Positions 21,013-61,303 are shown, counted from the first letter of the stretch. The stretch is DNA of 64,000 bases from Gammaproteobacteria bacterium (GCA_026195895.1 JAPHRO010000021.1:3848-67847); one strand, 5' to 3'. Notes: generated from the letters alone by a model not told the origin. Numbers and translations: made by a program.

Positions 21013-22914
21013 GTGGATTTTTTTGAACGTCAGGACAGGGCCAGGCGCAATACCTGGCTGCTGGCTTTGTATTTTTTATTAGCGGTTGCTTTAATAGTGG
21101 TTGCGGTAAATGCGGCTTTCTATCTGTTTTTTAAATTCACCGAAGCCTATCCTTATACACCCAGAACATGGTTTAGTCATACAGTCTGGCTGTATGTAAC
21201 CGCAGGTACGCTACTGGTTATCCTGCTGGGTAGCGTATCACGATTTGTTTCTCTGGCTGGCGGCGGTAAGGCGGTGGCTGAAATGGCCGGTGCACGATTG
21301 GTGGATTTAAATACTGCCAATATGAATGAAAAGAAATATATCAATGTCGTTGCAGAAATGGCGATTGCTTCAGGTGTACCTATGCCGGTGCTATATGTGC
21401 TGGATGATGAATCAGGCATTAATGCGTTTGTTGCCGGTTACCGGCCAACGGAAGCGGTGATGGTGGTTACTCAGGGCGCACTGGAGGCGCTTGATCGTGA
21501 TGAGCTGCAGGGCGTTGTCGGGCATGAATTCAGTCATATTCTAAATGGCGATATGCGAATTAATATTCGACTCATGGCGATACTGGCCGGGATATTAATC
21601 ATTGGTCAGATTGGGCAGTTTTTACTCAGAGGCAGTGGGCGTCGTCATTACATCAGCCGGAGCGGCAAAAATAATGGCCAGGGAGCGTTGATTGTTCTGG
21701 CAATCGCGTTGTTAATTATTGGTTATGTGGGATTGTTTTTTGGTCGATTAATAAAAGCCGCAATTTCAAGGCAACGAGAATTTCTTGCTGATGCTTCATC
21801 GGTTCAGTTTACGCGAAATGCCAGGGGTATCGCGGGTGCTTTGTATAAAATAAAACAAAATGCTACCGGTTCGCTGTTACAAAACAAACGAGCTGAAGAC
21901 ATGAGCCATATGTGTTTCGGTGAAACCCTGCATGTTAATTTTCAGCGATTACTGGCAACGCACCCGCCATTAGAAACACGGATTAATGAAATAGATCCAG
22001 GCTTCCTGAAAATACAAAATTCTCAACAGATAGTGGAAAAACAAAATCAGCTCAAAGCGGATGAAAAGGCTAAAGGTTTTTCTGCTGCGAATGAGATGGT
22101 GCACACTTCCGTTCAGGCTGTTACCGATTCGGTAGGTAATCCGGGGCCAGAACACATGCTATATGCAGCCGCTATGCTGCAATCGCTTCCTTCTCCAGTG
22201 ATGAGTCTGGTGCATGAGGCGCAAGGTGCCAAAGCCATTGTTTATGCCTTGATACTCACTGCCATGGATAGAACGGCGGGGCTCAAATTTCTGCATGATG
22301 CAGGGGAAGGTGAGGCGGCACAGCTAGTGGAAGAAAAATTGAGCCAATTGTTGTCACTCGATAAGCGCCTGCGTCTGTCATTAATAGATCTATTATTGCC
22401 ATCGCTAAAAAGACTTGGCGAAGCTGAAACAGCGGCATTTCTTGAAACAGGTGAAGCACTGATTAAGCTGGATAAAAAATATACATTATTCGAGTTTGTG
22501 TTATTTACTATTTTGAATCAGCATTTAAATCCGCAGGCAGAACGCGCAGATAAAATTCGCTTTTATTCATTCAAGCCGGTGCTGGTAGATATTCAATTAA
22601 TCCTGTCTGTGCTCTGCCACAGTAGTCAGCAATCGGCTGAAAAAAAACAACAGATGTTTCAGCGTGGTTTGAGTACATTCACCCAGAAAGAAATGCCTTT
22701 GTTGTCGGTTAAACAATTCAGCATAAAAACAATCCGGCATTCCCTGAACAGATTGTGCCAGCTGTCACCAATGCTTAAAAAGTCTGTAATAAATGCCTGT
22801 GCCGATGTGGTTATCGATGATGGTATTATGTTGCCTGAGGAAGCAGAGTTATTACGCGCTGTGGCAGAAAGTCTGGATTGCCCAATTCCACCTTTTGTAA
22901 ACCTAAGCAGTTAA
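21013..22914 (+). CDS. M48 family zinc metallopeptidase with a long C-terminal extension
   Basis: HEFSHILNGD (HExxH) between TM segments. A GTG start is predicted. About 300 aa of extra C-terminal sequence. Confidence 0.65.
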   Translation: MDFFERQDRARRNTWLLALYFLLAVALIVVAVNAAFYLFFKFTEAYPYTPRTWFSHTVWLYVTAGTLLVILLGSVSRFVSLAGGGKAVAEMAGARLVDLNTANMNEKKYINVVAEMAIASGVPMPVLYVLDDESGINAFVAGYRPTEAVMVVTQGALEALDRDELQGVVGHEFSHILNGDMRINIRLMAILAGILIIGQIGQFLLRGSGRRHYISRSGKNNGQGALIVLAIALLIIGYVGLFFGRLIKAAISRQREFLADASSVQFTRNARGIAGALYKIKQNATGSLLQNKRAEDMSHMCFGETLHVNFQRLLATHPPLETRINEIDPGFLKIQNSQQIVEKQNQLKADEKAKGFSAANEMVHTSVQAVTDSVGNPGPEHMLYAAAMLQSLPSPVMSLVHEAQGAKAIVYALILTAMDRTAGLKFLHDAGEGEAAQLVEEKLSQLLSLDKRLRLSLIDLLLPSLKRLGEAETAAFLETGEALIKLDKKYTLFEFVLFTILNQHLNPQAERADKIRFYSFKPVLVDIQLILSVLCHSSQQSAEKKQQMFQRGLSTFTQKEMPLLSVKQFSIKTIRHSLNRLCQLSPMLKKSVINACADVVIDDGIMLPEEAELLRAVAESLDCPIPPFVNLSS

Positions 22915-23187
22915 CCGCTAAGTCTTTATATTGATCCATTTATCCAGCGGCCTGTGAACTGTCTCACAGCCGGATTATGGATGATTAACATTTTGTCGTT
23001 ATATGTTTCATACTGATTTTAAGGCAAATGTTTCGAGGCTAGCAACATGCAGGCAGCACATTACATACTAATCAGCATGACTTTTATTGTTTTAATGTTG
23101 TCCTATGTAACAACTTTAATATAGTGATCTGATGCGATATTAATAATCAGGAATTCAATGCCGAATTCGGTGATATAATCCGGCTTT

Positions 23188-24153
23188 ATGAATCGTGTAT
23201 TTTCCATTGCGCCGATGCTGGACTGGACTGATCGGCATGAGCGTTATTTCCTTCGTTTAATTTCTCGTCACGTGCTGCTCTATACGGAGATGGTCACCAC
23301 CGGCGCTATCCTGTTTGGTGACCACGATAAATATTTGAGATTCAATGAAGCAGAGCATCCAGTCGCTTTACAACTAGGCGGCAGTGATCCTGTTGATCTG
23401 GCTACCTGTGCCAGGATAGCCGAAGAATATGGCTATGACGAAGTTAATCTGAATGTGGGTTGTCCCAGTGATCGAGTAAAATCAGGTAGCTTTGGTGCCT
23501 GTTTAATGGCGACACCAGAAACCGTCGCAGAATGTATAGCCGCGATGAAGTCTGTAGTGTCAATTCCGGTCACGGTAAAACATCGCATCGGTATAGATGA
23601 TCGCGATAGCTGGGAAGAATTATGCCAGTTTGTGGAGGTTGTTTCGCAGGGTGGTTGTGAAGTGTTTATTGTGCATGCTCGCAAAGCCTGGTTGTCTGGT
23701 TTAAGCCCAAAAGAAAATCGCGATATTCCGCCACTGCATTATGATATGGTGCATCGGCTAAAAAAAACCTATCCACAATTTGAGTTTATAATTAATGGTG
23801 GATTTAAAACGCTAGCAGATTCACTGGCGCAACTTGAGCATGTAGATGGGGTAATGATGGGGCGCGAAGCTTATCATAATCCCTATATTTTAAATGAGTT
23901 AGACAGGCTGTTTTTTAATGATAATCATCCAGTTGTTAGTCGCATGGAAGTTATCGAGTCTATGCTGCCTTATATTGAGGCAGAGTTAAAAAAAGGCACA
24001 AAATTAAAATCGATTACACGACATATTCTGGGCTTGTTTCACGGTGTCGCAGGAGCCAAAGCCTGGCGGCGTTATTTGAGTGAACATGCGCATTTGCCTG
24101 ATGCAGGTATAGATGTGGTCAGGGCAGCGCTGGAAAAAATCCATGAGACCTGA
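23188..24153 (+). CDS. dusA: tRNA-dihydrouridine(20/20a) synthase DusA
   Basis: MNRVFSIAPMLDWTDRHERYFLRLIS N-terminus and an FMN-binding TIM barrel. Confidence 0.85.
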   Translation: MNRVFSIAPMLDWTDRHERYFLRLISRHVLLYTEMVTTGAILFGDHDKYLRFNEAEHPVALQLGGSDPVDLATCARIAEEYGYDEVNLNVGCPSDRVKSGSFGACLMATPETVAECIAAMKSVVSIPVTVKHRIGIDDRDSWEELCQFVEVVSQGGCEVFIVHARKAWLSGLSPKENRDIPPLHYDMVHRLKKTYPQFEFIINGGFKTLADSLAQLEHVDGVMMGREAYHNPYILNELDRLFFNDNHPVVSRMEVIESMLPYIEAELKKGTKLKSITRHILGLFHGVAGAKAWRRYLSEHAHLPDAGIDVVRAALEKIHET

Positions 24154-48218: not shown

Positions 48219-49757
48219 ATGGCAAAAGGTATTATTGCTGCGGGACATGAGCTGACTGTGCAGGCAGCAGAAATGGTTCTGGCCGATGGTGGCAATGCGT
48301 TTGATGCCGCTATTGCGGCTTTTTATGCGGCCTGTGTGGCCGAACCTGTTTTGGCATCGCCAGGTGGCGGCGGCTTTATGCTGGCAAAATGCGGGAATAC
48401 TCGGCCCGTTTTATATGATTTTTTTGTGCAAACCCCGACCTGTTTGGGAAAGCCTGAAATGGATTTTTTTCCAATTGTTGCGGATTTTGGGGAAACGCAG
48501 CAGGAGTTTCATATCGGTCATGCATCTGTTGCGGTACCGGGTGTAATGCGCGGTTTGTTTAATGTGCATAAGGATCTGGCTTCTATGCCAATGCAGGAAC
48601 TGGTAAGGCCAGCAATTGATTTTGCACGCCAGGGTATCAGAATAAATAGTTTTCAGGCTTTTATTTTTGATGTCGTCAAACCAATTTTTGTACATAGCGA
48701 AAGTGTAAAAAATAATTTTTCAGGTAAAAATAATAGAGATGTTTTATTGGTTGAAGGGGATGTGTTTCAGCCATCGAAAATGGCAAATACTCTGGAAGCA
48801 ATAGCGCATGAAACGGAACGGCTTTTTTACGAAGGAGAAATAGCGACCGATATTATAAAAGCGAGCATCGAAAGTGGTGGCCTGCTGAGTAAAAACGATT
48901 TGTTGTCCTATCAGTGTATAAAACGAAAAGCATTAGGGTTTTCCTACAGGAATAGTCAGCTATTTACTAATCCGCCGCCTTCATCCGGCGGTATTCTAAT
49001 AGCTTTTGCTTTGAAGTTGCTGGAAAGCTCAGGTGCAGAACCGGATGCGTTTGGTTCGGTAGCGTCACTGATAAAAATTGCCAGGGCAATGGACTTGACA
49101 CAGAAAGTTCGTGTAGATCAGGCATTTAAAAATGAAAACTTGCATGCTTTATTAGACAGGGAATTGCTAGATAAATATGCGGCCCAGATAAAAGATCACG
49201 CGCAGTCTTATCGAGGTACAACACATATTAGTATTATTGATAAGCAAGGGAATATGGCGGGTCTCAGTCTGTCCAATGGTGAAGGCTGTGGTTATATGTT
49301 ATCGGACACAGGCATTATGCTAAATAATATGCTGGGTGAGCAGGATCTAAATCCGCATGGTTTTTTTCAATGGGAAACCAGTCAGCGCATGACCTCGATG
49401 ATGGCGCCAAGTTTAATGTTGCTGGATGATGGTCGTCATGTGGTGACAGGTTCGGGTGGTTCTAACCGAATTCGCTCGGCTTTATTACAGGTGATAATAA
49501 ATTTAATTGATCATGGAATGCCGTTAGATGAAGCGGTTATGAGTCCACGGCTGCATATGGAAGATGGCTTGTTAAATATCGAAAGTCAGTTTGATGCTGG
49601 GGTGATTGAAGAAATAAAAGCGGAATTTTCGAATCATCAGATATGGTCAAAACCTAATTTATTTTTTGGTGGTGCGCATTCCGTAATGCAGGATGGCGAA
49701 AACTATTACGGCGCCGGTGATGGACGCCGCGGCGGCATCAGTAAACTGGTTGTTTGA
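48219..49757 (+). CDS. ggt: gamma-glutamyltransferase family protein without a signal peptide
   Basis: Ntn-hydrolase GGT family with nucleophile region GTTHISIID. The N-terminus is GGT-like (GGNAFDAAIA) but lacks a secretion signal. Confidence 0.75.
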   Translation: MAKGIIAAGHELTVQAAEMVLADGGNAFDAAIAAFYAACVAEPVLASPGGGGFMLAKCGNTRPVLYDFFVQTPTCLGKPEMDFFPIVADFGETQQEFHIGHASVAVPGVMRGLFNVHKDLASMPMQELVRPAIDFARQGIRINSFQAFIFDVVKPIFVHSESVKNNFSGKNNRDVLLVEGDVFQPSKMANTLEAIAHETERLFYEGEIATDIIKASIESGGLLSKNDLLSYQCIKRKALGFSYRNSQLFTNPPPSSGGILIAFALKLLESSGAEPDAFGSVASLIKIARAMDLTQKVRVDQAFKNENLHALLDRELLDKYAAQIKDHAQSYRGTTHISIIDKQGNMAGLSLSNGEGCGYMLSDTGIMLNNMLGEQDLNPHGFFQWETSQRMTSMMAPSLMLLDDGRHVVTGSGGSNRIRSALLQVIINLIDHGMPLDEAVMSPRLHMEDGLLNIESQFDAGVIEEIKAEFSNHQIWSKPNLFFGGAHSVMQDGENYYGAGDGRRGGISKLVV

Positions 49758-50069
49758 ATTTTATATTATTGAGAAATTTTTGACGAAATTTACTATATCC
49801 AGTACCTTTCTCATAAATTCGCTGGCGTTTTTTTGTGTTTTTTGAATGTGCAAAATACTGATCAGGTAATAACAGCAAGTCAGGTGCCGTACGATCTATT
49901 TATTCAGTTTTCCCATGTCCACTATTACAGAGCAGGAAGAGGCAATGTCAATATAGCATTTATGAAACTCAGGAGGAGTAGAGAAGTCAAACTTGCCGAT
50001 AATAGATATGGTTAAGCTTTAATTTTTTTCGTTGATTTTGTGGGTAACGGTCATAGTATAATAATCTAC

Positions 50070-50945
50070 TTAATGTTTGGTGTTGGGTACCTCTGGTTGG
50101 TTTGAGGCGGCAAATAATGCCTCGACGTCAATCTTGTCCAGCACATAATGCGCATTGCAGAATTCGCAGTCTACCTCTATTTTTCCTTTTTCTTCGATAA
50201 TGCTATTTACTTCCTTTGATCCCAGGGATATGAGCATAGAATCAATCCGTTCTCTGGAGCAGTTGCATCTGAAGCTCATTGGTTCTGATTCGAACAGACG
50301 GACATCATCCTCATGGAACAACCGGTGCAATAGTTCTCGAACGGGTAGCTGCTGAATTTCATCATCGCTTAAGGTCGCGGCAAGATGCGTGGTGCGATTC
50401 CAGGAATCTGGATCGTCACCAGGCGTTTCATTGGGCAGTTGCTGCAACAGGAAACCGGCGCAGCTATTATCGTCGGCGGATAGCCAGAGGTTGGTGTTAA
50501 GCTGTTCCGATTGCTGAAAATACGTTTCAATGGCGTCTTTCAGGTGTTCGCCCTGTAAAGCAATAATGCCCTGATAAGGCTCGCCTTTATCGGGCTCGAT
50601 AGTCATCACCATCTGGCCATTTCCAAATATCGATTTCAGGCCATGGTCGGGTACATCGTCATGCCAGCGTGCAATGCCACGCAGCGTGCCATCAGATGTG
50701 CATTGTGCGACCAGTAAATGTAACGGGCCGTCGCCCCGTATCTGTAGAATCAGCGAGCCCTGATATTTTATGGTTGCCGATAATAATGCGCAGGCAGCCA
50801 TAGCTTCACCTAGCACCCGGCGTATACTTTCAGGATAATCAGCGCGTTCGAGAATTGCCTGCCAGGTTGCTTTTAGGCGTACAATTTCGCCACGTACATC
50901 GGTGTTTTCAATAATAAATCGGTGTAGCTGATCGTTGTCTGACAT
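50070..50945 (-). CDS. hslO: redox-regulated chaperone Hsp33
   Basis: C-terminal zinc centre CxC...CxxC (FRCNCS...CEFCNAHY). 291 aa. Confidence 0.85.
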   Translation of the reverse strand: MSDNDQLHRFIIENTDVRGEIVRLKATWQAILERADYPESIRRVLGEAMAACALLSATIKYQGSLILQIRGDGPLHLLVAQCTSDGTLRGIARWHDDVPDHGLKSIFGNGQMVMTIEPDKGEPYQGIIALQGEHLKDAIETYFQQSEQLNTNLWLSADDNSCAGFLLQQLPNETPGDDPDSWNRTTHLAATLSDDEIQQLPVRELLHRLFHEDDVRLFESEPMSFRCNCSRERIDSMLISLGSKEVNSIIEEKGKIEVDCEFCNAHYVLDKIDVEALFAASNQPEVPNTKH

Positions 50946-55765: not shown

Positions 55766-56710
55766 ATGCAGCCGTTATTCATGCGTGGACCTTCGATTAC
55801 TCTGCGAACTATCCTGTTAATCATTTTTTCTATCATGCTGATGATGGTGGATCACCGCTGGCATCATCTTGAGTCGGCTCGAAGTCTGATTGAGTCGGTG
55901 GTTATTTACCCGCTTCGCTATGCGATAAATTTACCGGCCCAGTTTATAAGCTGGGGCGATGAATCTTTGTCTTCGCATCAGTTTCTGTTAGCAGAAAATA
56001 AACAGCTAAAAGAGCAATCGCTACGTGCCCAGGTGAGTTTGCAGAAATTGAGTATTCTCGAAAAAGAAAATGAACGCTTGCGCAAAATGCTCAGTGCACA
56101 ACCGAAAGTGGGCGAGGAAGTGCTGGTTGCCGAGCTGCTTTCTATCGACCTGGATCCCTATAAGCAGCAGGTCATTATTAACAAGGGCGATCAAAAAAAT
56201 GTTTATCTGGGACAGCCTATTATTGATGCCTGGGGCGTGATGGGACAGATTATTCATACTGGAAAATATTCTGCAACCGCCATGCTGATATCAGACCCAA
56301 GTCACGCCATTCCGGTGCAGGTTAATCGCAATGGTCTGCGTAGCACGGCGTTTGGTACCGGCCATCCACATAAACTTGAATTGCGATATATTCCCCATAA
56401 TGCTGAGATCGAAGTTGGAGATTTGATGGTGACATCGGGTCTGGGGGGGCGCTTCCCGCCAAATTATCCGGTAGGCAGAATTATTGAAATTGATCGGCCG
56501 GCAGGGGAAACTTTTGCTCGGGTGATAGCTGAACCGGTTGCCCACCTGGATCGAAGTCGCGAAGTATTGCTGGTCTGGCACAATCCACCACAGCCGGAGT
56601 CGGAACCGGAACCGGAACCGGAATCAAAGGAAGATCCTGGGCCTGACTCTGAGAACGAGTCTCCAGCACAATCAGATACTGGTAAAAAGAGGCAACAGAA
56701 TGCTGGATAG
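55766..56710 (+). CDS. mreC: rod shape-determining protein MreC with an acidic E/P-rich C-terminal tail
   Basis: N-terminal TM, coiled coil and MreC beta domain. The tail is EPEPEPES. Confidence 0.85.
   Translation: MQPLFMRGPSITLRTILLIIFSIMLMMVDHRWHHLESARSLIESVVIYPLRYAINLPAQFISWGDESLSSHQFLLAENKQLKEQSLRAQVSLQKLSILEKENERLRKMLSAQPKVGEEVLVAELLSIDLDPYKQQVIINKGDQKNVYLGQPIIDAWGVMGQIIHTGKYSATAMLISDPSHAIPVQVNRNGLRSTAFGTGHPHKLELRYIPHNAEIEVGDLMVTSGLGGRFPPNYPVGRIIEIDRPAGETFARVIAEPVAHLDRSREVLLVWHNPPQPESEPEPEPESKEDPGPDSENESPAQSDTGKKRQQNAG
56594..56626 (+). repeat. hexanucleotide (GAACCG)n microsatellite inside the mreC 3-prime end
   Basis: CCGGAGTCG GAACCG GAACCG GAACCG GAATCA encodes PESEPEPEPES. Confidence 0.6.
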
Positions 56711-57194
56711 CCGCTGTTATCGAGTTGTACCGCCAACCCTGGTAGTGGCACTAATGCTAATGATGTTGCCGTTGCCGGACTGGGCGCAGGCTTTTCGTCC
56801 GGACTGGGTAACGCTGGTGGTGATTTACTGGATAATGGCTGTGCCCGAAAACGTTGGTGTGACTGTTGCCTGGATTTTTGGTCTGTTGCTGGACGTTACT
56901 CAGGGTTCAATTTTAGGCCAGCATGCCATTGGCCTGGTGCTGGTGGCTTATCTGGTGCAACTACAGTATTTGCGTATTCGCGTATATTCTCTGGTGCAGC
57001 AATCATTAGTGGTTTTTGTGTTGTTAATGATTAAGCAGCTGCTGGTGCTCTGGGTAAACGGCATCGTAGGGCAGGCGCCCGATGATTTGGCCAGTTATTT
57101 TTTACCCAGTCTGATGGGCGCCATTATCTGGCCCTGGTTATTTGTGATTTTACGCGATATTCGTCGGCGTTTTACCCACACCAAAATATTCTAA
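56700..57194 (+). CDS. mreD: rod shape-determining protein MreD
   Basis: 5-TM protein of about 164 aa. Its ATG overlaps the mreC stop. ORF 56538 was trimmed. Confidence 0.8.
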   Translation: MLDSRCYRVVPPTLVVALMLMMLPLPDWAQAFRPDWVTLVVIYWIMAVPENVGVTVAWIFGLLLDVTQGSILGQHAIGLVLVAYLVQLQYLRIRVYSLVQQSLVVFVLLMIKQLLVLWVNGIVGQAPDDLASYFLPSLMGAIIWPWLFVILRDIRRRFTHTKIF

Positions 57195-58669
57195 TCGACA
57201 GACACCGTGCGTTCACTGGCCCAGTGACGTAGCTGGTTTATTTGTTCGTCCATCACAATCGACAGGGGTCGCGTCTGTTTTATTTCACTTAGAAAATCTT
57301 GCGTTTTAATGGGGCTGGATTGGCCATGACTGGCATACATTACTGAGACTATCGCCTGTTCTATTTCTGCGCCAGAAAAGCCCTTACTGGCCAGAGCCAA
57401 CTGCTGAAAATCAATATTTGTTTCAGGTAAATTACGTTTTTTAAAATGGATTTTGAATATGCTTTGTCGAGCTGGATGATCGGGCAGATCCACAAAAAAT
57501 ATTTCATCCAGTCTGCCCTTGCGGATCAGCTCCGGAGGCAGAGCTTCTATTTGATTGGCAGTGGCGACTATGAAAACAGGATGTTTGTTTTCAGCCATCC
57601 AGGTCAACAGGCTGCCAAGCAGGCGCTTTGATGTGCCTTCATCTTCGCTGCCCGAGGAAATGCCTTTTTCCAGCTCATCTATCCATAAAACACAGGGCGC
57701 CATAACTTCGGCTGTATGCAATGCCTGGCGTAGATTGCGCTCGGTTTCGCCGACGTACTTGTTATACAACTGACCGAAATCGAGCCGCAGCAGTGGGATA
57801 CCCCAGATGCCCGCAACAGATTTAGCGGCCAGGCTTTTACCGCACCCCTGGACACCCAGTAATAAAATCCCTTTAGGTCGATCCAGGTCGGTGGGTAAGT
57901 CTGCGCCATTCTGAAAGGCGGACTGGCGTTGTTCTAACCAGATTTTGAGTTTTTTCATGCCGCCGACATCAGAAAAATGAGCGGTTTCATATTCAAAGGC
58001 CAATATTTCATCCTGGTTGAGCAGGCGATATTTGGCTTCCATAACTTCCGGTAAATCAGTTTCAGTAATAGCACCATCATCTATAATTGCGTTACGAATC
58101 AGTCGATTAGAATCATTAAAGCTAAGTCCGGACAGGTTTTGTATTAATCGATCCAGTGTTGGGCGATCAGTGCGAACCCGGTTTTGATTCTGGTTTTGCC
58201 AGTTGCGCGCTTCTGTTTTGATCAATTCTTCCAGTTCAGCAGGACTGGGTAAGCGCAATTGAAACTTTGCGGTCAGGCGCTGCAGGTTTTTGGGTAATGA
58301 AAGCCGGTGGCTAACTAGAATCAACTTTCCTTTGTTGCCTTCAAACATCATGGCAATTTCTTTTAGCAGGCGTATATTGATCGGGTCGTTTAAGTAAGGA
58401 TCAAAGTCCAGCAGGACATAGAGGCCTTGCAGGTTTGACGCCTTAATATGGCGTAGTGCATCCTGTGGGGCGGCGACATGTTTCTGCGGGTCAAGATCAA
58501 TATCGAGGCGCTGTAATCCGTCTGTGACTGTCCATTTAAACAGGGGGATAAAAGTTCGAGTTGCGCTGTTGATAAGCAGCTCAAGTGTGCGACGTTCTTC
58601 AAAGGTCTCTACTGCAATGATGGGTACATGACCACGTATCAATAAATCCAGATCATGTTTGTCTGACAT
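57191..58669 (-). CDS. classical AAA family ATPase with an N-terminal domain of about 250 aa of unknown function
   Basis: Walker A GVQGCGKSL, Walker B LWIDELEK, and the second region of homology VATANQIEALPPELIRKGRLD. The N-terminal half resembles a degenerate nucleotide-binding fold (YVLLDFD, KLILVSH). Confidence 0.7.
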   Translation of the reverse strand: MSDKHDLDLLIRGHVPIIAVETFEERRTLELLINSATRTFIPLFKWTVTDGLQRLDIDLDPQKHVAAPQDALRHIKASNLQGLYVLLDFDPYLNDPINIRLLKEIAMMFEGNKGKLILVSHRLSLPKNLQRLTAKFQLRLPSPAELEELIKTEARNWQNQNQNRVRTDRPTLDRLIQNLSGLSFNDSNRLIRNAIIDDGAITETDLPEVMEAKYRLLNQDEILAFEYETAHFSDVGGMKKLKIWLEQRQSAFQNGADLPTDLDRPKGILLLGVQGCGKSLAAKSVAGIWGIPLLRLDFGQLYNKYVGETERNLRQALHTAEVMAPCVLWIDELEKGISSGSEDEGTSKRLLGSLLTWMAENKHPVFIVATANQIEALPPELIRKGRLDEIFFVDLPDHPARQSIFKIHFKKRNLPETNIDFQQLALASKGFSGAEIEQAIVSVMYASHGQSSPIKTQDFLSEIKQTRPLSIVMDEQINQLRHWASERTVSVD

Positions 58670-58742
58670 ATTTGAGCCCGTTATATATATGTGTTATTAC
58701 AACTAACTATATTATTAATCTTATAAAAACGCATCTTTAGCT

Positions 58743-59603
58743 ATGTTCCCACTTAAACAGGCGCTGGCCGAATACGGTTTTGAATCCCGTGAAAATTATG
58801 ATTACGCTATTCAGCGTTTTCTTGAACACCCGAATGAAAATATTCGTTGTCTGAATGTAGATGGCGAGCCGGGACGGCGTAAAACCGCTTTCGCTAATGC
58901 ATTGGCGCAGGCGTTGAAAGTCAGTCATGTGCTTTACTATGAGTTTGGAGCGGATAAACCCGTGCCGCAGACGGTGCGAGTGGTTGAAGGTGAGGAGCTC
59001 CCGGAAGAGCCTCCCACCCAGCCATTCGATCGGATTATGACGGAAGCCTGTGCATTAAGTGAGGCTGAAAGCATCATCTTAATACTGGATCAGTTGCATC
59101 TGGCTGAATTTCAGCAGCATCTTCGACTATTTGAATTTGTAAAAACTAAGATCTGGGCGTATAGCGATGTACAGTTTCATGCTAATCAGGCCAATTTGAT
59201 TGTGTTTTTGCTTTCAAACGAGCCGCTATACCACTCATTGCAGGTGAATAGCTTCAGGTTGTGGGTCAGTGCAGTACCTGAAGATACTGGCAAACCGCTG
59301 CCAGAAGAGCTGGGACTGGATGATAGCTGCCAGGAATGGCTTGATCCTCTGAATGAACTGATTTCAAAGCTCGGCCTCACTCCGTCCATCAAAGAATATC
59401 AAAAGCTGGCACACGACATAGAGCAGTCTGTTCGCACCGAAGAACAGCTAAAAATATCGATATTTGGCTGGCTTGAAAATGTAGATCGTAATTTACTCAA
59501 TAGCCGTGTTCTGTCACCTCTGCTGGTGAGGGTTCTAAGAGCAATTGAGGATAATTTGAGCATCCAGGAAGAGATTGAATTAAGTTCCGAAGGAATAGAT
59601 TGA
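58743..59603 (+). CDS. hypothetical protein with a degenerate P-loop (GEPGRRKT), possibly a pseudo-ATPase partner of the divergent AAA ATPase
   Basis: G-x-P-G-x-x-K-T at residues 40-47, then a hydrophobic strand with D (ILILDQ) but no catalytic Glu. No recognised family. Confidence 0.35.
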   Translation: MFPLKQALAEYGFESRENYDYAIQRFLEHPNENIRCLNVDGEPGRRKTAFANALAQALKVSHVLYYEFGADKPVPQTVRVVEGEELPEEPPTQPFDRIMTEACALSEAESIILILDQLHLAEFQQHLRLFEFVKTKIWAYSDVQFHANQANLIVFLLSNEPLYHSLQVNSFRLWVSAVPEDTGKPLPEELGLDDSCQEWLDPLNELISKLGLTPSIKEYQKLAHDIEQSVRTEEQLKISIFGWLENVDRNLLNSRVLSPLLVRVLRAIEDNLSIQEEIELSSEGID

Positions 59604-59671
59604 GAGTTCAAAACAGGGCATTTCGTCTGAAAACTGGCTCAATTAGCATTTAATTTGATAAATAATATAGA

Positions 59672-59685
59672 ATATCGGCCGATAT
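59672..59685. promoter_or_regulatory. perfect 14-bp palindrome ATATCGGCCGATAT (candidate operator) in an AT-rich leader
   Basis: Lies in the 277-bp AT-rich region upstream of the tandem paralog genes, flanked by TATAGA/TATATCTA half-repeats. Confidence 0.35.
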
Positions 59686-59880
59686 CGTTGTTATATCTAT
59701 AACGAAATTATCATAGTGATTTTTCCCTAATATCGTAATTTTTGTGATCAATCAACGGAAAGTGCTTGATAAATCATTGAAAAATACTATTAATTGTAGG
59801 TATTCAGGTTGTCCAGCTTAATCAATATGTGATCTGATTAACAGCGGGCTTCTAGCGTAAATATTAGACTTTAGTTGTGA

Positions 59881-60276
59881 TTGGAGTATTTGACGGTAAT
59901 GAGTATTCAATATAGCTCTGATAGCCAATATGCAGGACATTTGCCGCAGCGAGATGTAAGTAGTACTGCGCGGCTATTTAATTTTAATCGTCCAGTGTAT
60001 ATGACCGATTCAGTTTGGCATGATTGTGTTGAGTTAATGGATCGGAATGGCAAGACTATTGATGAACTGGCGGTACTGCAGCGTTTAAGGCATGTGCTTT
60101 TTATGGCGTCTAGCGCTTTACATGGTCGGGTAAAAGATGTGGAATGTGAATTTCGTATTCATCGTGTGCCTAATGATAAAAAGGCTCGCCACCCTGAAGC
60201 CACTACGCTCAAGATAGAAGCTCATTCAGATCAGTTCAATCAACCCGTTATTACTATTAAACATCCTAATGAGTAG
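59881..60276 (+). CDS. hypothetical protein, paralog 1 of a tandem pair, no recognised family
   Basis: Shares a core of about 100 aa with the next ORF (STARLFNFxRPVYMTxxVWxDCVEL...DELAVLQRLRHVLFMAxSALHGR...PVITIKxP). Confidence 0.5.
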   Translation: MEYLTVMSIQYSSDSQYAGHLPQRDVSSTARLFNFNRPVYMTDSVWHDCVELMDRNGKTIDELAVLQRLRHVLFMASSALHGRVKDVECEFRIHRVPNDKKARHPEATTLKIEAHSDQFNQPVITIKHPNE

Positions 60277-60290
60277 TATGTACTATTGTT

Positions 60291-60677
60291 ATGTATCCGG
60301 AAGAAGAATATCACTTAAGTAACGATCAAAATCCCGAGTTGAGGGACGTAACGAGTACGGCACGATTATTTAATTTCAGAAGACCTGTATACATGACATC
60401 GGCAGTATGGGAAGACTGTGTAGAGCTGGAATCAAAAGATGGTAAATCCTTTGATGAACTAGCTGTATTGCAGCGTTTGCGGCATGTGTTGTTTATGGCG
60501 GCAAGTGCCTTGCATGGCCGGTTTGAAGATCTGGATTATGATTTCCGAGTATATCGAATACCTAACAACTCTATCAATGGACGACGCCAGCCTGAACCAG
60601 TGAGTTTGCATCTCCAGGCGCATAAGGATGATCATAATCGTCCTGTGATTACTATCAAATTTCCTGACAAAGCTTAA
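60291..60677 (+). CDS. hypothetical protein, paralog 2 of the tandem pair
   Basis: About 50% identical to the preceding ORF across the conserved core. Separated from it by a 14-bp spacer. Confidence 0.5.
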   Translation: MYPEEEYHLSNDQNPELRDVTSTARLFNFRRPVYMTSAVWEDCVELESKDGKSFDELAVLQRLRHVLFMAASALHGRFEDLDYDFRVYRIPNNSINGRRQPEPVSLHLQAHKDDHNRPVITIKFPDKA

Positions 60678-60737
60678 TACTATTCAATGCAAGATCTATA
60701 TCTACTGGCATATAAATGATCAAAGCGGTAGCCCAAG

Positions 60738-61244
60738 ATGAAAAATAATTTACTGACCAGTTTGTTTGGTCGCCATAAGCAGCAAATTAAGCCCGATGCC
60801 TCTAAATCTTCCATATGTTTTGAAGATATCAGTGTGCTGATTGTGGATGATTCCAGAACGCAGTTATATGCTCTGGAGAAAATACTTAATAGCGTTGGCA
60901 TCAATACCATTACTGCAGAAAATGGCAAGCAGGGTATTCTCATGGCGCGCCATAAAAAGCCTGATCTGATTTTGATGGACATAGTGATGCCTGAAATCAA
61001 CGGTTTTCAGGCGACTCGGTATTTAACTCGGCAGCCAGATACTGGCCATATTCCTATCATCATCATCAGTGGTTCAAGTCAGGGGTCGGATAAAGTTTGG
61101 GGTATTAAGCTGGGTGCCAGGGACTTTATGCAAAAGCCCGTCGATAAAAAAGAATTACTGGATAAAATAGAGCACTGGCTGACTGAGAAATCGTTAGCAG
61201 CAACAGATAGTTCGCCTGAGCAGTCTTATGTTCAGGCTGTTTAG
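60738..61244 (+). CDS. single-domain response regulator (CheY-like receiver) with a 30-aa N-terminal extension
   Basis: VLIVDDS...LILMDIVMPEINGFQATR...KP. Paralogous to the receiver at 19920-20285. Confidence 0.75.
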   Translation: MKNNLLTSLFGRHKQQIKPDASKSSICFEDISVLIVDDSRTQLYALEKILNSVGINTITAENGKQGILMARHKKPDLILMDIVMPEINGFQATRYLTRQPDTGHIPIIIISGSSQGSDKVWGIKLGARDFMQKPVDKKELLDKIEHWLTEKSLAATDSSPEQSYVQAV

Positions 61245-61273: not shown

Positions 61274-61303
61274 AAAGCCACTTATAGCAGGGTGGCTTTT
61301 TTT
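61274..61303 (+). terminator. rho-independent terminator
   Basis: AAAGCCAC-N10-GTGGCTTT followed by TTTTT. Confidence 0.75.

Follow-up and report, generated by a model that had tools for sequence, protein, structure and literature searches.

A conserved five-gene neighbourhood behind mreBCD in Gammaproteobacteria: three separable units rather than one machine?

When five genes without recognisable housekeeping roles stand together behind mreBCD, do they work as one system or are they neighbours that can part company? The question is raised by a locus in a 64,000-nucleotide stretch of DNA from the metagenome-assembled genome of an uncultured Gammaproteobacteria bacterium (GCA_026195895.1, JAPHRO010000021.1:3848-67847), which in its full length is referred to here as the window. 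Directly behind mreD lie the genes for a classical AAA ATPase of 492 amino acids (aa; 57191..58669, minus strand), a 286-aa protein with an AAA+ fold (58743..59603, plus strand), two small paralogous proteins (paralog A, 59899..60276, and paralog B, 60291..60677, both plus strand) and a single-domain receiver of 168 aa (60738..61244, plus strand). An earlier reading of the DNA, made without database searches and called the sequence-only reading below, had grouped these genes as one imported module, perhaps for signalling, remodelling or defence, and the open reading frame (ORF) calls recover all five genes where it had placed them. The comparison described here leans, with somewhat more confidence than doubt, towards a conserved neighbourhood of three separable units and not one machine. 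These units would be the 286-aa protein, the AAA ATPase, and an operon of the two paralogs with the receiver.

The distribution of the genes is central to this view. The 286-aa family was scanned with one genome per species, which gave 80 loci, with more added by context look-ups, and the window genes were mapped onto these loci by tblastn. A close clade of 28 loci (L001-L028), where identity in the 286-aa protein is 50-69%, comes from uncultured marine, sediment and vent Gammaproteobacteria. All 28 keep the order gatCAB, mreBCD, the AAA gene where there is one, the 286-aa gene, two small genes, the receiver gene, coq7 and a glcF-like gene. When the AAA gene was scored as present or absent at the mreD site of each locus, it was found at 15 of the 28 and missing from 13, and on the tree of the 286-aa protein the two states are intermingled. 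This pattern suggests that the AAA gene was probably ancestral at the site and has been lost at least five times, for which reason it is treated as accessory. At nine of the 13 loci without it, the 286-aa gene begins 5-36 base pairs (bp) after mreD, so in these relatives the mreBCD operon most likely includes it as a fourth gene. Beyond the clade, the 286-aa gene occurs at about 50 further gammaproteobacterial loci without any of the other cluster genes within ~8 kb.

The 286-aa protein, identical to NCBI entry OQL06_04805, had been described from the sequence alone as having a degenerate P-loop and no catalytic Glu. The motifs bear this out, with GEPGRRKT at the P-loop and ILILDQ, without the Walker B Glu, at the Walker B position. 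Both changes extend to the whole family. At the Walker A position, 80 of 84 distinct members carry GRR[K/R] and then T (S or A in two), and at the Walker B position 82 of the 84 carry hhhhDQ (Asp-Gln). Where canonical AAA+ P-loops have xG, this family has two invariant Arg (GRR[K/R]T), with Lys or Arg at the 'lysine' position. Judged from the aligned members, the degenerate nucleotide site is a conserved family trait and not a sign of decay. Also conserved is an acidic C-terminal tail, EEIELS. No model in Pfam, NCBIfam, PHROG or PADLOC matched the protein, an exact-sequence look-up returned nothing on record, and the family profile found no solved structure among the PDB sequences.

Set beside known AAA+ proteins of the PS1-hairpin clade and inactive AAA+ subunits (NorQ/CbbQ, NtrC, ClpA/B, dynein), the 286-aa protein differs in several respects. 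It has no sequence similarity to solved AAA+ proteins; it comes without a VWA partner, a sigma-54 domain or a protease partner; and its gene is mostly solitary in the genomes that carry it. Assignment to the MoxR AAA+ group (NorQ/CbbQ) was rejected, as neither the canonical Walker A and B motifs nor a VWA-domain partner was found.

The neighbours of the solitary 286-aa genes provide a lead to function. Their hosts include Lysobacterales, Rehaibacterium, Pseudomarimonas, Chiayiivirga, Ahniella, Oceanococcus, Thiocapsa and HTCC5015, and the genes around them in distant loci were identified from ORFs filtered by third-position GC content (GC3) and from Pfam scans. The gene immediately downstream is bolA-like in 10 of these loci and an ampG-like gene of the major facilitator superfamily (MFS) in 10; upstream, 14 Lysobacterales loci have a class-III aminotransferase gene. 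To call the MFS gene ampG-like is a reading of the consensus, for which Pfam gives only MFS_1. A DUF6231 gene lies upstream of the 286-aa gene in at least three loci, and outside the clade (L030, L033, L041, L056 and others; the L036-L059 group) the gene often stands in the arrangement DUF6231/286/bolA-like or directly upstream of the ampG-like MFS gene. In E. coli, too, ampG and bolA are near neighbours. A search of the literature on DUF6231 (PF19742) gave only a general fold-mining paper. Given its mreBCD, bolA-like and ampG-like neighbours, the 286-aa protein most likely has a role in the cell envelope or in cell shape.

In contrast to the altered site of the 286-aa protein, that of the 492-aa ATPase is complete, as the sequence-only reading had recognised when it described an active classical AAA protein with a Walker A motif and a second region of homology (SRH). 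The protein matches PF00004 at residues 268-394 (E 5e-31) and carries Walker A (GVQGCGKS at 272), Walker B (LWIDE, read directly from the translation), a pore loop (KYVG at 304) and an SRH with Arg fingers (RKGRLD at 383), the set that defines a classical AAA ATPase. Its best solved relatives are the VAT and p97 D2 modules (E ~1e-54). With this full motif set and these strong matches, the ATPase is probably active, and it is probably a hexameric unfoldase or remodeller. An N-terminal domain of ~250 aa is followed by one C-terminal AAA module, an architecture of the Ycf46/SpoVK type. Across its full length, N-terminal half included, the protein is matched by phrog_8638 (E 3e-116), and it shares 36-38% identity over 98-99% of its length with plasmid genes annotated as 'AAA family ATPase' (cyanobacterial, Treponema, Bacillus). 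The sequence-only reading saw a possible degenerate nucleotide-binding fold in the N-terminal domain; a search with this domain alone returned mostly gene fragments, and its profile gave nothing meaningful against PDB sequences.

The Ycf46/SpoVK-type AAA proteins (COG0464) are the nearest known parallel. Like the ATPase of the cluster, they have ~490-500 aa, with a single classical AAA module at the C-terminus, complete in its motifs, and an N-terminal half that is uncharacterised, and the Ycf46 gene likewise adjoins small uncharacterised genes. The likeness is one of architecture, of cyanobacterial plasmid homologues and of the label 'SpoVK/Ycf46/Vps4 family' that JGI gives to close relatives, and not of direct comparison with a reference sequence. 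In Synechocystis, the gene for Ycf46 (slr0374) belongs to a stress-induced operon, slr0373-slr0374-slr0376, with two small hypothetical genes, and its loss affects carbon use (PMC7496141). There are also differences. The host of the cluster is a non-photosynthetic gammaproteobacterium, and the small genes of the cluster are DUF6573-like, whereas the homologue on a cyanobacterial plasmid (Geminocystis) lies near DUF1257 and DUF2997 genes; in a Pfam scan, the four neighbours of the AAA gene gave no DUF1257 or DUF2997 match at E <= 0.1.

AAA homologues occur elsewhere in other company, and their contexts in Geminocystis, Treponema and Thiobaca are unrelated to the mreD cluster. On a plasmid of Treponema succinifaciens (L090:5076-8569), a full-length homologue with 36% identity lies directly upstream of a gene for 'phage baseplate assembly protein V', and this locus could be a contractile-injection-type cluster. 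In Thiobaca trueperi (L086:7001-8192), the homologue is split or degraded. Its N-domain ORF is intact and ~100 aa including Walker A are gone, for which reason it is likely a pseudogene, and the gene beside it is unrelated to the 286-aa protein. An unrelated metagenome-assembled genome (L088:6452-7735) has an AAA homologue, cut off by the end of the contig, whose N-domain shows 45% identity; 175 bp upstream of it, in the same orientation, is a gene for a receiver of 124 aa.

For the two small genes, the sequence-only reading correctly saw tandem paralogs, which share 56% identity, but its statement that they belong to no recognisable family did not hold, since they are distant members of DUF6573 (PF20213). 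Both align with this family over the whole domain, at 16.3 and 18.4 bits, below the Pfam gathering threshold of 27. Their membership despite these scores is argued from two further results. The profile of the small family, run against 1.84 billion representative proteins, retrieved ~120, and all 10 of the 10 that were scanned are DUF6573 proteins (E 1e-10 to 1e-33); in addition, an annotated DUF6573 protein from a Xanthomonas plasmid has 35% identity to both paralogs (tblastn E 1e-11). On these comparisons, the small paralogs are a divergent branch of DUF6573. Neither a Foldseek search of the small-paralog model against BFVD nor a search of the small-family profile against PDB sequences gave a match or anything meaningful, and literature searches for DUF6573 and PF20213 found no papers.

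Of the 232 plasmid records in which DUF6573 occurs, 141 belong to plasmids typed as conjugative; the hosts include Xanthomonas and Streptomyces. Unlike these plasmid members, the paralogs of the cluster are chromosomal and tandemly duplicated and share an apparent operon with a receiver gene; conservation among their orthologues is very strong, at 63% mean column identity. In a neighbour-joining tree, all first copies group apart from all second copies, with the single-copy versions outside both, which fits one old duplication with both copies kept. A DNA repeat in the region (D1) is taken to be a trace of this duplication. The ORF of paralog A opens at 59881, but its probable start is the ATG at 59899, giving 125 aa, because the Shine-Dalgarno sequence and this ATG are conserved in relatives. 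For paralog B (128 aa), the NCBI annotation (OQL06_04815) has 94 aa and begins downstream of the invariant motif RDVTSTARLFNF; its start is probably too late, as all orthologues keep RDVTSTARLFNF.

The receiver, which had been called CheY-like, matches PF00072 (E 7e-28), and an alignment to PleD D1 shows the acidic pair (DD37-38), the phospho-acceptor Asp (D80), the Ser (S110) and the Lys (K133) all in place, so that the earlier call is confirmed. No cut-off was reached among the NCBIfam equivalog models. As in the CheY/DivK/CpdR class, an intact acidic pocket, phospho-Asp, Ser and Lys go together with the lack of an output domain; unlike that class, the receiver has a clade-specific N-terminal extension of ~30 aa, and no kinase, Hpt or chemotaxis gene lies near it.

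Does this part of the cluster have regulation of its own? The spacer between the 286-aa gene and paralog A (59604..59898) is AT-rich and ~300 bp long; in all relatives it spans 181-446 bp at a GC content of 0.27-0.42, and otherwise it is poorly conserved. A common element stands out in it. TGTGA-N6-TAACA is present in the window, where it reads TGTGATCTGATTAACA (59828..59843, plus strand), and in all 26 distinct spacer sequences of the 28 close relatives, with a chance expectation of 0.16-0.18 sites per window. A TAnAcT hexamer follows it at a distance of 21-22 nucleotides (nt), in the window the -10-like TAGACT at 59865-59870, 21 nt downstream of TGTGATCTGATTAACA, and then come GGAG and ATG. 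TGTGATCTGATTAACA agrees with the CRP consensus TGTGA-N6-TCACA at 9 of 10 positions. In class II CRP promoters, the site is centred near -41.5 from the transcription start, and the spacing of TGTGATCTGATTAACA and TAGACT predicts just such a class II site for a CRP/Vfr-type activator. In a sigma-70 promoter scan, shuffled sequence gave at least as many sites as the real one. The genes downstream are separated by short gaps (14 bp between paralogs A and B, 60 bp between paralog B and the receiver), and an intrinsic terminator (61274..61303, plus strand) follows between the convergent receiver and coq7 genes. Folding gives its hairpin -15.8 kcal/mol with a 10-nt loop and a U-run after it, in agreement with the strong terminator noticed earlier; a simple terminator scan, limited to loops of up to 8 nt, passed over it. 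The short gaps, the AT-rich upstream spacer, the fixed CRP-type site and the terminator suggest a separate operon, under its own regulation, for the paralogs and the receiver.

Two other palindromes may be mentioned here. A perfect CRP-consensus palindrome, TGTGAACTGTCTCACA, lies at 22953-22968 in the spacer that separates a gene for a 633-aa membrane protein (by eye like a peptidase, ending at 22914) from one read by eye as dusA (starting at 23188), and suggests an active CRP-family regulator in the source organism. Just downstream of the 286-aa gene is a perfect 14-bp palindrome, ATATCGGCCGATAT (59672-59685), and ATATCG recurs nearby; around it, nothing in the spacer alignment of relatives reached consensus.

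How might three such units work? To judge from its motifs, the 286-aa protein would bind a nucleotide or phosphate ligand but not hydrolyse it, and may serve as a regulator or scaffold. The Ycf46/SpoVK-type ATPase, encoded divergently from it, would be an accessory that remodels or unfolds; that it acts on the 286-aa protein is speculative. The third unit would be transcribed from a CRP-type class II promoter to the strong terminator. Its DUF6573-like paralogs may work as a heterodimer, since both copies of the duplication have been kept. As the receiver has intact phospho-acceptor residues but lacks an output domain, it would be phosphorylated by a kinase encoded elsewhere and then probably signal by contact with other proteins.

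Several observations weigh against so clean a division. Within the clade, the 286-aa gene, the two small genes and the receiver gene are never separated, and in a second branch (L031, L035, L038) mreD is followed by the 286-aa gene, a single small gene and the receiver gene; a functional link between the first and third units is possible for this reason. In the distant locus L033 (68% GC), a homologue of the AAA N-domain is divergent from a DUF6231-286-bolA operon, which hints at a real link between the AAA and 286-aa proteins and is the sole sign of one outside the clade. The proposed tie of the 286-aa protein to the envelope or cell shape is drawn entirely from gene neighbourhood. Moreover, shared ancestry confounds all of the co-occurrence evidence.

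On a rival view, all five genes form a single signalling or remodelling module, with the active AAA protein and a pseudo-ATPase at its core, the paralogs as clients and the receiver as a gate. Receiver-type adaptors of this kind have a precedent in CpdR and RssB, which serve ClpXP. The complete quintet recurs at 15 of the 28 related loci, and to this extent the co-occurrence expected of such a module is real; the AAA and 286-aa genes form a divergent pair, their adjacency is seen again in L033, and in the unrelated L088 genome a receiver gene lies directly upstream of the AAA homologue. However, the module is not obligate. The AAA gene has been lost at 13 of the 28 loci, where the other four genes are intact and conserved, the 286-aa family is mostly solitary elsewhere and stands alone in ~50 genomes, and the paralog-receiver unit has its own conserved promoter region. 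In addition, the more distant small-family member in L092 and the DUF6573 genes of plasmids have neither a receiver gene nor a 286-aa gene beside them, and every positive co-occurrence falls inside one syntenic lineage. A single module thus seems unlikely, and an obligate one, as first proposed, is not upheld. A narrower version, also unlikely, would keep the AAA and 286-aa proteins as a two-component AAA+ machine of an active and a dead regulatory subunit, with the paralog-receiver operon as an unrelated neighbour. It is consistent with the divergent arrangement over a short spacer wherever the AAA gene is present, with the second instance in L033, and with the AAA+ fold and conserved acidic C-terminal tail of the 286-aa protein. 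The spacer is 73 bp long and AT-rich in the window (58670..58742), its counterparts in relatives span 57-219 bp, and comparison of these found no motif kept across the whole clade. Such a machine is harder to reconcile with the ~50 loci that have a 286-aa gene and no AAA gene within ~8 kb, or with the AAA homologues of Thiobaca, Treponema, Geminocystis and phages, which have no 286-aa-like neighbour. Nor is there profile similarity between the AAA N-domain and the 286-aa family (hhalign probability 0.1%).

A more ambitious idea builds on the three separable units. The 286-aa protein may found a new family of non-hydrolysing AAA+ regulators that act with the MreBCD elongasome or the envelope machinery and are joined, in this clade, by a CRP-controlled DUF6573 pair, a phospho-receiver and sometimes a Ycf46-type unfoldase, in a module that tunes shape or wall growth to cAMP and two-component signals. 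We regard this as quite improbable; if it were true, it would give DUF6573 its first cellular role.

Least probable of all, and very improbable in its own right, is a horizontally acquired anti-phage defence system or mobile island. The region is slightly AT-rich, the AAA core has weak PADLOC matches to IetA and TRIP13, and the DUF6573 relatives are found mainly on conjugative plasmids. The AT-richness from which the sequence-only reading argued for import is real but only modest: the GC content of the cluster region is 0.434 against a window mean of 0.463 (standard deviation 0.027), at the 10th percentile among windows of equal size. Per-gene GC content tracks that of the host genome, from 0.41 to 0.54 across the 28 relatives. 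No tRNA genes or flanking repeats were found at the cluster, and no ORF in or beside it resembles an integrase. Only the AAA gene varies at the conserved site, in a pattern that fits loss. Vertical descent is argued from the identical flanks in 28 relatives whose 286-aa proteins differ down to ~50% identity, and on this comparison the cluster is a vertically inherited chromosomal block and not an island. The fixed position, host-like composition and missing marks of mobility together speak against the horizontal acquisition first supposed.

The defence matches dissolve in a similar way. For IetAS (IteAS), whose ATPase is partnered by the serine protease IetS, the NCBIfam IteA model gives 80.8 bits against a cut-off of 510, and the PADLOC match to IetA covers the generic AAA core only. 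For the CBASS-associated TRIP13/HORMA pair, the TRIP13 model covers residues 358-474 only (E 2e-5), and the neighbours have no HORMA or CD-NTase match. A Vps4-like system was likewise rejected, with no MIT match and a CdvC model at 70.7 bits against a cut-off of 650. Pfam and PADLOC scans found no IetS protease, HORMA, nuclease or other effector among the cluster proteins, VWA and MIT domains are absent from them, and the four non-AAA proteins have no PADLOC matches. These missing partners and sub-threshold scores support the earlier decision to set aside HORMA/TRIP13, MoxR and Vps4, and by these searches the cluster fits no named defence, MoxR or Vps4 system.

What was supposed to be an imported five-gene system thus appears to be a stable, lineage-specific neighbourhood of separable units. 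What is new in it is an AAA+-fold family without a Pfam or NCBIfam match whose nucleotide site is altered alike family-wide (GRR[K/R]T, DQ), together with the first chromosomal context of DUF6573 that has apparent regulation, with tandem paralogs, a receiver and a CRP-type site. The findings touch no long-standing open question, but the 286-aa family can be followed up experimentally as a candidate envelope or cell-shape factor of Gammaproteobacteria. As the organisms of the core clade are all uncultured, immediate testing is limited; cultured carriers of the 286-aa family include Rehaibacterium, Pseudomarimonas, Chiayiivirga and HTCC5015.

Some features of the surroundings remain to be described. 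Upstream of the cluster, gatCAB is divergent from mreBCD, whose last gene, mreD (56700..57194, plus strand; PF04093 was found in the orthologous loci), ends in a stop codon at 57192-57194 that shares 4 nt with the 3' end of the AAA gene (57191). Both this arrangement and the overlap had been reported by the sequence-only reading and are seen in the ORF calls. An Rfam scan of 56.5-61.6 kb gave no match. The C-terminus of MreC (56610-56710) is acidic and of low complexity, with a Pro/Glu repeat, PQPESEPEPEPESKEDPGPDSENESP. Within the final 16 kb of the window, local GC content dips most sharply (to 0.36-0.39) at 49500-50250, around the spacer between a 524-aa ORF and a downstream gene that reads by eye as hslO (Hsp33).

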